From: a virus
Taxonomy: Duplodnaviria; Heunggongvirae; Uroviricota; Caudoviricetes
DNA length: 23,211 nt
Reading direction: 5' to 3' (one strand)
IMG/VR virus record: IMGVR_UViG_2563366999_000003
Coordinates: 1-23,211 of that record
In this document: piece by piece, positions 15,142 through 23,211 of the stretch
How the letters are laid out: the number at the start of each line of letters is the position of its first letter
Position numbering within the stretch: position 1 is the stretch's first letter
Position numbers and translations under genes: made by a program
Notes under the pieces: model-generated
Seen by the model: only the letters and a program-made list of their open reading frames with translations
Told to the model about the DNA's origin: nothing
The model's database searches: none

Positions 15142-18100
15142 ATGGGTAAAGGCAGCAGTAAGGGGCATACCCCGCGCGAAGCGAAGGACAACCTGAAGTC
15201 CACGCAGTTGCTGAGTGTGATCGATGCCATCAGCGAAGGGCCGATTGAAGGTCCGGTGGATGGGTTAAAAAGCGTGCTGCTGAACAGTACGCCGGTGCTG
15301 GACAGTGAGGGGAATACCAATATCTCCGGCGTCACGGTGGTGTTCCGGGCAGGTGAGCAGGAGCAGACTCCGCCGGAGGGATTTGAATCCTCCGGTTCCG
15401 AGACGGTGCTGGGTACGGAAGTGAAATATGACACGCCGATCACCCGCACCATCACGTCTGCAAATATCGACCGTCTGCGCTTTACCTTCGGTGTGCAGGC
15501 ACTGGTGGAAACCACCTCAAAAGGGGATCGGAATCCGTCGGAAGTCCGCCTGCTGGTTCAGATACAGCGTAACGGTGGCTGGGTGACGGAAAAAGACATC
15601 ACCATTAAGGGCAAAACCACCTCGCAGTATCTGGCCTCGGTGGTGGTGGATAACCTGCCGCCGCGCCCGTTCAGTATCCGGATGCGCAGGATGACACCGG
15701 ACAGCACCACAGACCAGCTGCAGAACAAAACGCTCTGGTCGTCATACACCGAAATCATCGATGTGAAACAGTGCTACCCGAACACGGCACTGGTTGGCGT
15801 ACAGGTGGACTCAGAGCAGTTCGGCAGTCAGCAGGTGAGCCGTAATTATCATCTGCGCGGGCGTATTCTGCAGGTGCCGTCGAACTATAACCCGCAGACG
15901 CGGCAATACAGCGGTATCTGGGACGGAACGTTTAAGCCAGCATACAGCAATAACATGGCCTGGTGTCTGTGGGATATGCTGACCCATCCACGCTACGGCA
16001 TGGGGAAACGTCTTGGTGCGGCGGATGTGGACAAATGGGCGCTGTATGTCATCGGCCAGTACTGCGACCAGTCAGTGCCGGACGGCTTTGGCGGCACGGA
16101 GCCGCGCATCACCTGTAATGCGTACCTGACCACACAGCGCAAGGCGTGGGATGTGCTCAGTGATTTCTGCTCGGCGATGCGCTGTATGCCGGTATGGAAC
16201 GGGCAGACGCTGACGTTCGTGCAGGACCGGCCGTCGGATAAGGTGTGGACCTATAACCGCAGTAATGTGGTGATGCCGGATGATGGCGCGCCGTTCCGCT
16301 ACAGCTTCAGCGCCCTGAAGGACCGCCATAATGCCGTTGAGGTGAACTGGATTGACCCGAACAACGGCTGGGAGACGGCGACAGAGCTTGTTGAAGATAC
16401 GCAGGCCATTGCCCGTTACGGTCGTAATGTCACGAAGATGGATGCCTTTGGCTGTACCAGTCGGGGGCAGGCACACCGAGCCGGGCTGTGGCTGATTAAA
16501 ACGGAACTGCTGGAAACGCAGACCGTGGATTTCAGCGTGGGCGCAGAAGGGCTTCGCCATGTGCCGGGCGATGTTATTGAAATCTGCGATGATGACTATG
16601 CGGGTATCAGCACCGGCGGGCGCGTGCTGGCGGTGAACAGCCAGACCCGGACGCTGACGCTCGACCGTGAAATCACGCTGCCATCCTCCGGTACCACGCT
16701 GATAAGCCTGGTTGACGGAAGCGGCAATCCGGTCAGCGTGGAGGTCCAGTCCGTCACCGACGGCGTGAAGGTAAAAGTGAGCCGTGTTCCTGACGGCGTT
16801 GCAGAATACAGCGTGTGGGGGCTGAAGCTGCCGACGCTGCGCCAGCGCCTGTTCCGCTGTGTGAGTATCCGTGAGAACGATGACGGCACGTATGCCATCA
16901 CTGCCGTGCAGCATGTACCGGAAAAAGAAGCCATCGTGGATAACGGGGCGCACTTTGACGGCGACCAGAGCGGCACGGTGAATGGTGTCACGCCGCCAGC
17001 GGTACAGCACCTGACCGCAGAAGTCACCGCAGACAGCGGGGAATACCAGGTGCTGGCGCGCTGGGACACGCCGAAGGTGGTGAAGGGCGTGAGCTTTATG
17101 CTTCGCCTGACCGTGGCAGCGGATGACGGCAGTGAGCGGCTGGTCAGCACGGTCCGGACGACGGAAACCACATACCGCTTCAGGCAGCTGGCGCTGGGAA
17201 ACTACAGGCTGACAGTCCGGGCGGTAAATGCGTGGGGACAGCAGGGCGATCCGGCGTCGGTATCGTTCCGGATTGCCGCCCCGGCAGCGCCGTCACAGAT
17301 TGAGCTGACGCCGGGCTATTTTCAGATAACCGCCACGCCGCATCTTGCGGTTTATGATCCGACGGTACAGTTTGAGTTCTGGTTTTCTGAAACGAAGATT
17401 TCAGATGTCTCACAGGTGGACAAATCTGCCCGCTATCTTGGTACGGCACTGTACTGGGTAGCCTCCGGCCAGAATATTAAGCCGGGCCATGATTATTATT
17501 TTTATATCCGCAGTGTGAATACCATTGGTAAATCGGCATTCGTGGAGGCTGTCGGCCAGCCGGGTAATAATCCTGAAGAGTATCTCAATTTTTTTGAAGG
17601 GAAAATAAACAGCACCCTGCTGGGGCAGGAGCTGAATGATCGTATTAATGCCTCTGCATTGCGCAGTGAAGTTGAGCAACTGGAGGATGAGGTCAATCAG
17701 CGACTGGAGAGTGATATTGCCGAGGTGACCCAAAAAATCGGGGAAACTGAAAACAGCCTCACGCAGCTGGTTGCTAAAAAAAATGATGAGCAGTCACTGG
17801 CCATATCCCAGGTGAGTCAGAAAGTGGACAACGTCAGTAGCGAACTCACGCAAACGGTCAGTCAGAGTAATGAGGAGAATGCACGCCAGATAGCGCAGGT
17901 TCGTCAGTATGTGGATGAAAAAAGCAGTGAAATCATCTCGACGACAGACAAAAAACTGGGCGAGCAGGAAGCAACAATCCAGCAGATACAAAAGGTTCAG
18001 ACAGACACCAGTAATAACCTGAACAGTATGTGGGCCGTGAAACTGCAGCAGATGCAGGATGGTCGCCTTTACATTGCGGGTATCGGTGCCGGTATTGAGA

Positions 18101-18843
18101 ATACCCCTGACGGTATGCAGAGTCAGGTGCTGCTGGCGGCAGACAGGATTGCGTTCATTAATCCGGAGAACGGTAACACCACTCCAGCACTGGTCACGCA
18201 GGGGGGACAGACGTTTCTCAATGAAGCGCTGATTAAGACCCTTATTGCTCCCACAATTACCAGTGGTGGCAATCCTCCGGCATTTTCCCTGACATCAGAC
18301 GGAAAGCTGACCGCTAAAAATGCGGATATCAGTGGCAGTGTGAATGCGAACTCAGGGACGCTCAACAACGTCACGATAAATGAGAACTGTCAGATTAAGG
18401 GGAAACTGTCCGCCAACCAGATTGAAGGCGATATTGTCAAAACGGTCAGCAAGTCTTTCCCCCGCACGAGCACTTATGCCAGCGGCACCATTACGGTCAC
18501 GATTAGTGATGATCAGAAGTTTGACCGACAGGTCATGATCCCGGCTCTGCTGTTTAAAGGAAGCAGGAAGGAAAATTATGGCAGTAATAATCAACAGTCT
18601 TATGTTTATTCTGTATGCCGTTTGCAGGTAACGAAAAACGGGACAGAAATTTTTAACCAGTCAACAACGGATGCTCCGGCGGTTTTTTCTTCCGTTATTG
18701 ATATGCCTGCGGGGCAGGGAACGTTGACGTTAAAGTTTACGGTCTCTTCTTCAATGGTCAATAACTGGACACCGACAACCAGTATCAGCGATTTGCTTGT
18801 TGTGGTGATGAAGAAATCCACCGCAGGTATCACGATTAGCTGA
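15142..18843 (+). CDS. J: Central tail fibre / host specificity protein J (1233 aa)
   Basis: ATG 15142 preceded by GAGG; N-terminal and central parts ([42 protein letters not shown]...) match lambda gpJ. The product is about 100 aa longer than I recall for lambda J, with an extended coiled-coil segment and a divergent C-terminal region. Confidence 0.95.
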
Positions 18844-18861
18844 ATTTTATAACCCATATAC

Positions 18862-18889
18862 GGGCGCCAGAAATGGCGCCTTTTTTATT
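18862..18889 (+). terminator. Intrinsic terminator downstream of J (tJ-like)
   Basis: GGCGCC-AGAAAT-GGCGCC (self-complementary 6-bp GC stem, 18863-18868 / 18875-18880) followed directly by TTTTTTATT (18881-18889). Confidence 0.7.
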
Positions 18890-18910
18890 GCAGAAAAGCG
18901 AGAGGTAATT

Positions 18911-19510
18911 ATGCGTAAATTATGTGCTGTTATTCTGTCCGCAGTAGTCTGGCTGGTTGCCGCTGGTACGCCAGCGAGCGCAGCAGAGCATCAGTCCACA
19001 CTAAGCGCCGGGTATCTTCAGACCCATACTGATATGCCAGGCAGCGATGACCTGAAGGGCATTAACGTGAAATACCGTTATGAATTTACGGACACGCTGG
19101 GGCTGGTGACGTCATTCAGCTATGCAGGAGACAAGAATCGCCAGCTGACCCGTTACAGCGATACCCGCTGGCATGAAGATTCCGTGCGTAACCGCTGGTT
19201 CAGCGTGATGGCGGGTCCGTCTGTACGCGTGAATGAATGGTTCAGTGCGTATGCGATGGCGGGTGTGGCTTACAGCCGTGTGTCGACCTTCTCCGGGGAT
19301 TATCTGCAGGTGACCGACAGCAAGGGGAAAACGCACGATGTGCTGACCGGAAGTGATGACGCTCGCCACAGTAACACCTCTATGGCGTGGGGAGCTGGCG
19401 TGCAGTTTAACCCGACCGAATCGGTGGCCATTGATGTCGCTTATGAAGGTTCCGGCAGTGGCGACTGGCGCACTGACAGTTTCATCGTAGGTGTCGGTTA
19501 TAAATTCTGA
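18911..19510 (+). CDS. lom: Lom outer-membrane protein (Ail/Lom/OmpX/PagC family beta-barrel), lysogenic-conversion moron
   Basis: ATG 18911 preceded by GAGAGG; signal peptide MRKLCAVILSAVVWLVAAGTPASA followed by AEHQSTLSAGY...; ends with the typical C-terminal aromatic beta-strand (VGVGYKF). Matches lambda Lom. Confidence 0.93.
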   Translation: MRKLCAVILSAVVWLVAAGTPASAAEHQSTLSAGYLQTHTDMPGSDDLKGINVKYRYEFTDTLGLVTSFSYAGDKNRQLTRYSDTRWHEDSVRNRWFSVMAGPSVRVNEWFSAYAMAGVAYSRVSTFSGDYLQVTDSKGKTHDVLTGSDDARHSNTSMAWGAGVQFNPTESVAIDVAYEGSGSGDWRTDSFIVGVGYKF

Positions 19511-19569: not shown

Positions 19570-22500
19570 ATGACGGTTAAGATTTCAGGTGTACTGAAAG
19601 ATGGAGCAGGCAAACCGGTACAAAACTGCACCATTCAGCTAAAGGCCAGACGCAACAGCACCACGGTGGTGGTGAACACGGTGGCCTCAGAAAATCCGGA
19701 TGAAGCCGGGCGTTATAGTATGGACGTTGAGTATGGCCAGTACAGCGTCACCCTGCTGGTTGAAGGTTTTCCGCCTTCGCATGCCGGGACCATCACAGTG
19801 TATGAGGATTCAAAGCCGGGTACGCTGAATGATTTTCTCGGCGCAATGACGGAGGATGATGCCCGTCCGGAGGCACTGCGCCGTTTTGAACTGATGGTGG
19901 AAGAGGTGGCGCGTAACGCGTCCGCAGTGGCACAGAATGCGGAAGCCGCGAAGAAGTCAGCCAGCGATGCCAGCACATCTGCCAGTGAGGCGGAAACCCA
20001 TGCGACTGATGCTGCAGACTCAGCACGCGCAGCCAGCACGTCAGCCGGACAGGCTGCATCATCTGCTCAGTCAGCATCTTCCAGCGCAGGAACAGCATCA
20101 ACAAAGGCCACTGAAGCCTCAAAAAGTGCTGCCGCTGCAGAGTCCTCAAAAAGTGCGGCGGCCACCAGTGCCAGTGCCGCGAAAACGTCAGAAACGAACG
20201 CGGCAGCGTCACAACAATCCGCAGCCACCTCAGCATCCACCGCGACCACGAAAGCGTCAGACGCTGCCACCTCAGCCCGGGATGCGGCGGCTTCAAAAGA
20301 GGCGGCAAAATCATCAGAAACGAGCGCAGCCTCGAGCGCCAGTAGTGCAGCTTCCTCGGCTACGGCGGCAGGAAATTCCGCGAAGGCGGCAAAAACGTCC
20401 GAGACGAACGCCAGGGCTTCTGAAACGGCAGCGGAACAGAGTGCCTCCGCAGCAGCAGACTCAAAAACAGCGGCTGCGTCGTCTGCCAGTGCCGCGTCAA
20501 CAAGTGCCGGGCAGGCCTCAGCCAGTGCCACCGCCGCCGGGAAATCGGCGGAAAGCGCGTCGTCATCAGCGACAACAGCTACCGCAAAAGCGACTGAGGC
20601 GACGAATCAGGCTACAGCTGCTAAAAATTCAGCATCGGCAGCAAAATCCTCTGAAACAAATGCAAAGACTTCAGAAGACAATGCCGCTTCCTCTAAGGCG
20701 GCAGCTGCTGAATCTGCAAGTTCTGCGTCTGCATCAGCCACCTCGGCGTCCGCTTCAAAAGATGAGGCGATCAGGCAGGCGTCAGCTGCGAAGGGTAGTG
20801 CTTCAACGGCATCCACGAAAGCAACAGAGGCGGCAGGCAGTGCGACGGCTGCATCTCAGAGCAAAACTGCTGCTGAATCCGCTGCGACCCGTGCGGAAGC
20901 TGCTGCTGATCGTGCTGAAGAGATTGCCGGTGCGGTTGCGATGGAAGACGCAAGCCTTACCACTAAAGGTGTTGTGAAACTTAGCAGTGCTGTCGACAGC
21001 ACCAGTGAATCGCTGGCCGCAACGCCAAAGGCAGTTAAAGCAGTCAATGACAATGCGAACAGCAGGGTGCCATCTGACCGAAAAATTAACGGGAAAGCAC
21101 TGACTGGGGATATCACATTAACGCCGAAAGATATTGGTACTTTAAATTCAGTAACGATGTCTTTCTCTGGCGGGGCTGGGTGGTTCAAACTGGCTACGGT
21201 TACCATGCCACAAGCGAGTTCCATCGTTTACATCACATTGATTGGTGGTGCCGGATACAACGTCGGCTCCCCACAGCAGGCAGGTATTTCAGAACTGGTT
21301 CTACGAGCAGGCAATGGAAACCCCAAAGGGATTACCGGAGCTTTGTGGAAGCGTACAGCCGTCGGATTAACGAATTTCGCCTGGATCAACACATCCGGCG
21401 ATACATATGATATTTACGTTGAGACTGGCAATTATGCGACGAGTGTAAATATCCATTGGGATTGTACTGCAAATGCGTCAGTTTCTGTTTATACATCGCC
21501 AGCCTATTCAGCGAGTAAGCCTTCCGGCGTTACCGATGGTGTTGTTTATACGATGTATAGCTCACATCAGAAACCTACACCATCAGATATTGGAGCACTG
21601 CCAACAACCGGAGGAACAGTTTCAGGTCCGTTGTCTGTTACTGGTGGGATCACCGGGGCACTGAAGGGGAACGCCGATACCGCGACGAAACTTGCGGCAG
21701 CCAAAAAAATTAACGGTGTTAAGTTTGATGGCTCGGCGGATATTAATCTCACGCCGGAAAATATTGGTGCATTTGCCCTACGTGCGACGGGGGCTTATGC
21801 GGATTCGGATGGAGCCGTTCCGTGGAATGCTGAATCCGGTGCATATAATGTCACGCGTTCTGGCGACTCCTGTCTTGTTGCAAACTTTTATACCGGTGTG
21901 GGGAGTTGCCAGACTCTCCAGATTCGCGCTCATTACAAGAATGGCGGTCTGTTTTACCGTTCTTCGCGTGATGGTTATGGCTTTGAGGAAGACTGGACTC
22001 AGATTTATACCAAAAAAGACAGCATTCCGGGAGTAAATACGACAGGTAACCAGAACACTACGGGTAATGCGGCAACAGCTACAAAACTACAGACGGCAAG
22101 AACTATCGGCGGTGTGAGCTTTGATGGTACTGCGAATATTAACTTGCCTGGTGTTAATACGACTGGTAACCAGAGCACTACAGGCAATGCAGCTACTGCC
22201 ACGAAGTTGCAGACAGCGCGTACTATTAATGGCGTGTCGTTTGACGGTTCGGCAAATATTTCTCTGTCACCAGCAAATATTGGTTGCCCGGCATCTCCAA
22301 CTGGCTGGTTAGGCACAGGGAGTAATGGTGCATCAATAACAACGGCTCAGTTAGTGACGATATTGCAGAATAATGGTGCCTTCAATACAAAAGCATGGGT
22401 GGCACGCTGTGCCTGGGCATACGCTGACAGCGCCTCCATACCAGACAGTGAAACAGGCTGCGGCATTATTCCACTGGCGGGGGCGGTGATAGAAGTATTC

Positions 22501-23211
22501 AGCCACAGTGCAACTTATTACACCATTCGAATAACAACAGCCACGACGACAAGTGTCTCTGGCGCACTCACTAATGCGGAATTTATCTATGTGTTTAATG
22601 GCACAGCTTATTCCCCCGGATGGCGTCGTGCACTGAACACAAAGAAACTGCCCACACCGCTTGAAATTGGCGCTTACAGCATATCGGAGATTAACCAACT
22701 CAATAAAAGTTTTATCACGTCATCAAAACTCGAAGGCGGCTCGTTAGATGCAAACTTCCAGACGTTAAGTTGTTATTATTTGCAAATATTCGACATTCAG
22801 ACAACAACCGATAGTCCTAACATGTTCGTAAGTCCGGTTGCTGGTTACAACATGGTATTTCGTTCGACTTCATCCCGTCGATACAAGACGGATATCGAGT
22901 CTTTAGAGAACAGGTACGCGGACGAGTTGTTGAAACTTCGTCCTGTATGGTATCGCTCGACTTGTGAAAGGGACAGAAAGGACTGGGGACATTATGGCCT
23001 TATTGCAGAAGAAGTCGGAGAGATAGCACCGCAATATGTTCACTGGCGTCCTCTTACAGACGAGGATGATCCAGGTATAGCGTCTGATAATGGGATGGTT
23101 GCAGAAGGCGTGATGTATGACCGTCTGGTTGTTCCACTCATTCATCATATTCAGAAACTGACAAAAAGGGTTGAGGAGCTTGAAGCAAAGTTAAAGCTAT
23201 CCGAGCTATAA
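19570..23211 (+). CDS. stf: Side tail fibre protein Stf (1213 aa from ATG 19570): lambda-Stf-like N-terminus, Ala/Ser-rich shaft, fibre repeats, divergent distal tip, C-terminal intramolecular-chaperone-like autoprocessing domain
   Basis: N-terminus MTVKISGVLKDGAGKPVQNCTIQLKARRNSTTVVVNTVASENPDEAGRYSMDVEYGQYSV matches lambda Stf. ATG 19570 has GGGG 5 nt upstream; an in-frame GTG at 19564 would add 2 aa. Uninterrupted ORF to the TAA at the last 3 nt of the window. C-terminal about 115 aa resemble endosialidase-type intramolecular chaperone (peptidase S74) domains. Confidence 0.92.
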   Translation: MTVKISGVLKDGAGKPVQNCTIQLKARRNSTTVVVNTVASENPDEAGRYSMDVEYGQYSVTLLVEGFPPSHAGTITVYEDSKPGTLNDFLGAMTEDDARPEALRRFELMVEEVARNASAVAQNAEAAKKSASDASTSASEAETHATDAADSARAASTSAGQAASSAQSASSSAGTASTKATEASKSAAAAESSKSAAATSASAAKTSETNAAASQQSAATSASTATTKASDAATSARDAAASKEAAKSSETSAASSASSAASSATAAGNSAKAAKTSETNARASETAAEQSASAAADSKTAAASSASAASTSAGQASASATAAGKSAESASSSATTATAKATEATNQATAAKNSASAAKSSETNAKTSEDNAASSKAAAAESASSASASATSASASKDEAIRQASAAKGSASTASTKATEAAGSATAASQSKTAAESAATRAEAAADRAEEIAGAVAMEDASLTTKGVVKLSSAVDSTSESLAATPKAVKAVNDNANSRVPSDRKINGKALTGDITLTPKDIGTLNSVTMSFSGGAGWFKLATVTMPQASSIVYITLIGGAGYNVGSPQQAGISELVLRAGNGNPKGITGALWKRTAVGLTNFAWINTSGDTYDIYVETGNYATSVNIHWDCTANASVSVYTSPAYSASKPSGVTDGVVYTMYSSHQKPTPSDIGALPTTGGTVSGPLSVTGGITGALKGNADTATKLAAAKKINGVKFDGSADINLTPENIGAFALRATGAYADSDGAVPWNAESGAYNVTRSGDSCLVANFYTGVGSCQTLQIRAHYKNGGLFYRSSRDGYGFEEDWTQIYTKKDSIPGVNTTGNQNTTGNAATATKLQTARTIGGVSFDGTANINLPGVNTTGNQSTTGNAATATKLQTARTINGVSFDGSANISLSPANIGCPASPTGWLGTGSNGASITTAQLVTILQNNGAFNTKAWVARCAWAYADSASIPDSETGCGIIPLAGAVIEVFSHSATYYTIRITTATTTSVSGALTNAEFIYVFNGTAYSPGWRRALNTKKLPTPLEIGAYSISEINQLNKSFITSSKLEGGSLDANFQTLSCYYLQIFDIQTTTDSPNMFVSPVAGYNMVFRSTSSRRYKTDIESLENRYADELLKLRPVWYRSTCERDRKDWGHYGLIAEEVGEIAPQYVHWRPLTDEDDPGIASDNGMVAEGVMYDRLVVPLIHHIQKLTKRVEELEAKLKLSEL
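19915..20930 (+). repeat. Low-complexity Ala/Ser/Thr/Lys-rich periodic region of stf (predicted helical shaft)
   Basis: About 340 codons dominated by A, S, T, K, E. The motif AAK(T/S)SET(N/S)A recurs with its K codon at 20182, 20308, 20392 and 20644, i.e. spacings of 126, 84 and 252 nt, all multiples of 42 nt (14 codons). Confidence 0.8.
22030..22269 (+). repeat. Two tandem 120-nt (40-codon) tail-fibre repeats within stf
   Basis: Unit 1 22030-22149 (GVNTTGNQNTTGNAATATKLQTARTIGGVSFDGTANINLP) and unit 2 22150-22269 (GVNTTGNQSTTGNAATATKLQTARTINGVSFDGSANISLS). A more degenerate copy lies upstream (GNADTATKLAAAKKINGVKFDGSADINLTPENIGA, about 21660-21780). Confidence 0.9.

Follow-up and report, generated by a model that had tools for sequence, protein, structure and literature searches.

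Residues 960-1132 of the tail tip protein J of phage lambda form a hypervariable specificity region, as described by Maddamsetti et al. with 1207 natural homologues (PMC6646904). Indels in this part of J gather at hot spots at lambda residues 1012, 1048-49, 1077-78 and 1107. Of these, 1012 and 1107 proved essential when lambda gained the use of OmpF in the laboratory, and four substitutions suffice for lambda to add OmpF as a receptor (PMC6646904).

Natural tips that use the porin OmpC are also on record. Brodel et al. cut into lambda J at residue 964 to attach two natural J C-termini, A8 and 1A2, and the resulting chimeras delivered DNA into cells deleted for lamB and ompC only when OmpC was supplied (PMC11338833). 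A8 accepts the OmpC of both K-12 and EDL933, whereas 1A2 accepts only the EDL933 type, and 21 of the 23 OmpC variants were covered by one chimera or both (PMC11338833). The Stx2a phage phi330 (vB_EcoS_phi330, PV189401.1) does not plate on the ompC knockout of the Keio collection, and Plac-ompC restores its growth there (PMC12502783). Two structures released on 2026-01-28 show the A8 fibre: PDB 9WCA holds A8 gpJ 713 alone in a closed state, and 9WCB, titled 'Open state of A8 gpJ 713 central tail fiber with OmpC G17 from E. coli EDL933', holds the open state with three OmpC chains.

Gene J and its surroundings

The stretch of DNA analysed here (the window, 23,211 nucleotides) is the late, or virion, operon of a lambda-like E. 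coli prophage, with terminase at one end and the side tail fibre at the other. Gene J, which encodes the tail tip attachment and host specificity protein, occupies positions 15142..18843 on the + strand (1233 amino acids), as assigned from the list of open reading frames, its translation, Pfam and exact-sequence look-ups. It follows H-M-L-K-I and precedes lom and stf in the order of reading frames in the window and in the gene calls of the source contig, the same late-operon position as in lambda, 434 and 21. The exact-sequence look-up found the product to be identical to WP_001591739.1 / ELG37095.1 of E. coli KTE84 (GCA_000352465.1), and 16 E. coli entries carry it under the UniRef name 'phage attachment tail tip protein J'. 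Six Pfam families (FNIII-A_GpJ, Phage-tail_3, Ig_J, Ig_J_second, Phage_Tail_Tip and Ig_GpJ_C) match above their curated cut-offs with E values from 1.8e-30 to 2.2e-43, and the gpJ domain order is complete: FNIII-A, the Phage-tail_3 hub, two Ig/FNIII domains, the tail tip fibre and a C-terminal Ig receptor-binding domain.

Similarity to known phages changes along the protein. The hub and FNIII part (residues 1-750; 15142..17391, + strand) is near-identical in lambda, 434, 21 and the PhiR phages, with nucleotide identities of 91-99% in 150-nt windows. It is followed by an extra shaft segment of about 100 residues (residues ~835-937; 17644..17952, + strand), recognised from alignment gaps and from two BLASTP segments against lambda between which residues 850-937 find no match. 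Lambda J, at 1132 amino acids and with its shaft at residues 809-861 (PMC11101478), lacks these alpha-helical residues, whereas the 1232-residue J of PhiR40_1 has the same extension, with 67% identity in that part, and the J of phage 21 is of intermediate length (1160 amino acids). The extra sequence looks heptad-like. Were it helical, the central fibre would be up to ~15 nm longer.

Downstream of the shaft, Pfam Phage_Tail_Tip and the alignment place the central straight fibre, a beta prism, at residues 945-1073 (17974..18360, + strand). It holds the conserved SGGNPPAF motif, which engineers have used as a fusion point (lambda residue 964; PMC11338833). The Ig-like receptor-binding domain, hereafter the tip, comprises the last 149 residues (1085-1233; 18394..18840, + strand), as delimited by the Pfam family Ig_GpJ_C (residues 1110-1233, E=1.8e-34), by sequence identities and by the PDB match.

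The interval between J and lom holds a GC-rich, terminator-like hairpin followed by a T run (18862..18891, + strand). Terminators are annotated at the same position in phages 434 and 21, and the hairpin is consistent with expression of lom separately from the late transcript. Lom itself (18911..19510, + strand; 199 amino acids; Pfam Ail_Lom, E=9.5e-122) is an outer-membrane beta-barrel of the Ail/Lom family and is no part of the receptor tip. The second host-recognition organ, the side tail fibre Stf, is encoded at 19570..23211 (+ strand; 1213 amino acids from its ATG), as supported by Pfam and the gene call of the source contig, with phage_tail_N at residues 3-136 and an intramolecular C-terminal Peptidase_S74 chaperone at residues 1103-1159. 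Its residues ~110-470 form a long, repetitive region rich in Ala, Ser and Thr. No tail fibre assembly gene was found 3' of stf on the source contig, where a nitroreductase-like protein and a hydrolase come next.

Operons of this kind are common: about half of the complete genomes (2651 of 5426) contain a late operon of lambda type that spans 80% or more of the window. The window is mosaic. Along its first 2.2 kb, J shows 91-99% identity to lambda, 434 and 21, yet over the full 23 kb there is no match above ~94% in any complete E. coli genome. In NZ_CP027550.1 (253929-295229), a J of 3702 nt is 99.6% identical to that of the window over its last 1.3 kb, within a prophage that sits at the lambda attachment site (beside ybhB/bioA) and has a different, short side fibre together with the type III effectors NleG and NleH1-1. 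The occurrence of the same J allele in this differing prophage indicates that the allele moves between prophage backbones.

The receptor-binding tip and its relatives

The initial annotation proposed that the C terminus of J had diverged from lambda, and the comparison bears this out. In BLASTP, identity to lambda J is 93% over residues 1-854 and 51% over the last 300; over the last 149 it drops to 41.2% in tblastn, equally for lambda, HK630 and DE3, far from the identity above 90% that had been named as the finding that would count against the proposal. The peptide quoted as divergent, SKSFPRT...AGITIS, is present at residues 1103-1233 (nt 18448-18840). The quoted framework string, SGGNPPAF...NENC, likewise exists, at residues 1040-1083 (nt 18259-18390); it lies just upstream of the region to which it had been assigned, in the beta-prism fibre rather than in the tip, and divergence from lambda begins far upstream of that region, at about residue 750. 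Neither chance nor sequencing noise accounts for the divergence, since the reading frame is uninterrupted and two independent assemblies encode this very protein. Three indels separate J from lambda: a 4-residue deletion at lambda 1008-1011, a 5-residue insertion after 1053 and a 1-residue deletion at 1106. They fit the lineage-defining indel pattern already described among natural J homologues (PMC6646904).

The closest relatives of the tip are OmpC users. Over the last 149 residues it is 86.6% identical to phi330 and 85.2% identical to PhiR30_1, which equals A8; the receptor of both phi330 and A8 is OmpC. Identity is 73% to phage 21 and 4A7, 70% to the Stx2 phage 1717, ~60% to the 1A2-like tips of Stx2a_1447 and PhiR40_1 (receptor OmpC of the EDL933 type) and ~45% to 434 and mEp460. 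The alignment to A8, phi330, phage 21 and 1717 is free of gaps over this length, and all four share the three indels relative to lambda. The best solved relative is A8 gpJ 713 (9WCA/9WCB, E=1.4e-141); Foldseek matches on a J model were driven by sequence and served only to supply PDB entry titles. Our literature search on the PhiR phage collection (Brenes and Laub 2025) found no receptor data.

The DNA of A8 and 1A2 was taken from a machine-read supplement with dropped bases, and a clean A8 sequence was then obtained from the PDB; its tip is identical to that of PhiR30_1. The machine-read A8 DNA, bases dropped, matches PhiR30_1 and phi330 at 96%, and a blastn search with the error-bearing machine-read 1A2 sequence gave no match. 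In a frameshift-tolerant alignment, A8 is 97% identical to PhiR30_1 and 1A2 is 94% identical to Stx2a_1447 at comparable positions.

A neighbour-joining tree of eleven tips places the tip as sister to A8 and phi330 in 163 of 200 bootstraps. These three group with phage 21, 4A7 and 1717 in 179 of 200, and all tips other than lambda and 434/mEp460 form one clade in 200 of 200. Two tips whose binding to OmpC has been verified by experiment, A8 and 1A2-like, thus bracket the tip of the window, with the LamB binder lambda outside, and parsimony assigns it OmpC.

The allele is old and constrained. Relative to the A8 type, dS is 1.10, dN 0.10 and dN/dS 0.09, which points to purifying selection on a long-established allele rather than to a decaying copy. 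Nucleotide identity to PhiR30_1 is 88-97% at residues 1044-1123, 65-73% at residues 1124-1203 and 87% at residues 1204-1223. This profile along the domain marks the tip core as a lineage of its own, the flanks of which may have been homogenised by recombination.

Twenty-two substitutions distinguish the tip from A8: S1110N, T1111S, T1120R, A1135P, L1136V, K1139R, S1141G, R1142K, K1143H, Y1146F, G1147N, V1155W, V1158T, Q1162R, K1165R, T1168Q, P1179Q, A1180G, K1198T, M1205G, V1206A and T1231S. We compared their positions with the four lambda hot spots, mapped onto J through the BLAST alignment with lambda and used in place of lambda loops L1-L4, for which residue ranges are absent from the text of PMC11101478. 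Hot spot 1 (residues 1109-1112; 18466..18477, + strand; opposite lambda 1012-1015) comes after the 4-residue deletion and carries S1110N and T1111S. Hot spot 2 (residues 1135-1158; 18544..18615, + strand; opposite lambda 1038-1056) encloses the 5-residue insertion and 11 of the 22 differences, in a stretch that is identical between A8 and phage 21/4A7 and from which 1717 departs at three residues only. Hot spot 3 (residues 1179-1180; 18676..18681, + strand; opposite lambda 1077-1078) carries P1179Q and A1180G, and hot spot 4 (residues 1205-1208; 18754..18765, + strand; opposite lambda 1103-1107) combines the 1-residue deletion with M1205G and V1206A. Altogether 13 of the 22 differences lie within five residues of a hot spot (Fisher one-sided p=0.019), so that some contacts with OmpC probably differ from those of A8 in 9WCB. 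This enrichment, together with the changes at residues 1135-1158, allows for a shifted fine specificity, and the tip may differ from A8 in, for example, which OmpC alleles it recognises. An AlphaFold2 monomer model of the last 224 residues, built from a 24-sequence alignment, had a mean pLDDT of 55.7, too poor for mapping the loops.

The OmpC of one carrier of the allele was compared with that of EDL933. In E. coli 2015C-4136CT1, the J 3' end is 99.6% identical to that of the window and belongs to a prophage at the lambda attachment site. Its OmpC (L015:3499-4620) is closest to EDL933 OmpC, from which it differs mainly by a surface loop six residues longer, with FGLNRYDER in place of SPL (DDQNFGLNRYDERYIG versus DDQNSPLYIG in EDL933). 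This OmpC allele is rare: at >=99% identity, it occurs in 9 of 5426 complete genomes, and the six further carriers of the J allele are all absent from those nine. With the long-loop allele in 0 of 6 other carriers, there is no one-to-one link between the tip and one OmpC allele.

Candidate receptors

What the data establish directly is that the 3' end of J belongs to the gpJ C-terminal family, is sister to OmpC-binding tips, is intact and is under purifying selection. Beyond this, its 85-87% identity to tips that use OmpC experimentally and its nesting among OmpC binders make it likely, as judged by homology, that this Ig-like receptor-binding domain of the A8/phi330 type recognises the trimeric porin OmpC and not LamB. 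By analogy with the work on lambda and LamB (PMC11101478; 8XCK/8XCJ) and with the titles of 9WCA and 9WCB, Stf would probably make the first, reversible contact, after which the J trimer would engage a single OmpC trimer, with the distal loops of all three tip domains entering the three extracellular funnels of the porin. The tip would then spread, the beta-prism fibre twist, the helical shaft flip and the FNIII strings release, opening the tail tube for ejection of DNA. The range of OmpC alleles that the tip accepts is probably tuned by the 22 substitutions that set it apart from A8.

A change of receptor since the split from A8, by which hot-spot substitutions would have switched the tip to another trimeric porin or outer-membrane protein such as OmpF, PhoE or OmpN, is kept as a possibility because of the hot-spot enrichment and because four substitutions add OmpF in lambda. 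That few changes at such sites take lambda from LamB to OmpF (PMC6646904) and that the tip core is deeply diverged in nucleotides both speak for it. We nevertheless consider it unlikely, as the A8 and 1A2-like tips are only ~60-70% identical to each other and both use OmpC, and as a dN/dS of 0.09 reflects conservation rather than an adaptive burst. The initial annotation had suggested altered specificity, with another porin or another LamB allele as the receptor. Homology supports the first of these and names the porin as OmpC; the second is improbable given that lambda, the sole LamB binder compared, falls outside the clade at 41% identity. Continued use of LamB, perhaps of a divergent allele, would accord with the fold and framework shared with lambda, and our literature search on the receptor used by phage 21, which falls within the larger clade of the tip, returned nothing usable. 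Yet the indels fall exactly at the receptor-deciding lambda positions 1012, 1048-49 and 1107. Lambda-like sequence is absent at both 1012 and 1107, with the 4-residue deletion beside the former, the 1-residue deletion beside the latter and differing residues at each. All receptor-tested tips of the clade, moreover, use OmpC and work in cells deleted for lamB, and we regard retention of LamB as very improbable.

Lambdoid prophages of E. coli are often defective, and many partial J fragments are found in the database, so that J could in principle be a decaying remnant whose tip binds nothing. This is hardly credible for a reading frame of 1233 intact codons within a late operon that is itself intact from terminase to stf, with the dN/dS given above and an identical protein in 16 E. 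coli entries. A further, rather doubtful prospect is that the tip recognises something that neither A8 nor 1A2 does, whether a class of OmpC alleles escaping both, as two of 23 OmpC variants do (PMC11338833), or a different porin. If so, nature would already supply a tip with which lambda-based delivery particles could be retargeted.

Comparison with described tips

The tip is an ordinary allele of an OmpC-binding group that has already been studied, and the J protein is already deposited under the right name. The hypervariable specificity region of J (PMC6646904) and OmpC-binding J tips, the latter through genetics, engineering and structure, were likewise published before. The A8 tip is already in use for directing DNA delivery particles derived from lambda to E. 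coli of the gut, and the practical value of the present allele is modest: a natural A8 variant might widen or shift the range of OmpC alleles that can be targeted. More generally, a virion module that is near-identical to that of lambda can gain a different host range by a swap of only the last ~480 codons of J.

Lambda J (8XCK/8XCJ) shares the architecture of hub, two FNIII domains, helical shaft, beta prism and Ig-like tip and is 93% identical over residues 1-830, but its tip is 41% identical, its shaft is ~100 residues shorter and its receptor is LamB rather than the predicted OmpC. A8 resembles the window J in domain family, in the indel pattern relative to lambda and as its sister group in the tree; it differs by the 22 substitutions, and the A8 construct has a lambda-derived shaft that is ~100 residues shorter than the shaft of the window J. 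Phi330 has the same gene order, J-lom-stf, but belongs to the genus Pankowvirus, with other upstream tail genes and a tail fibre coding sequence annotated at 1042 amino acids. The 1A2 tip, of the Stx2a_1447 / PhiR40_1 type, falls in the same larger clade (200 of 200 bootstraps) yet is without the NNQQS insertion and only ~60% identical. Phage 434 is a further lambdoid phage with a non-LamB tip, and Hantke is said to have reported in 1978 that its J binds OmpC. The 434/mEp460 tip nevertheless lies outside the A8 clade, as distant (~45%) as the LamB-binding tip of lambda, which places OmpC use in two distant tip lineages.
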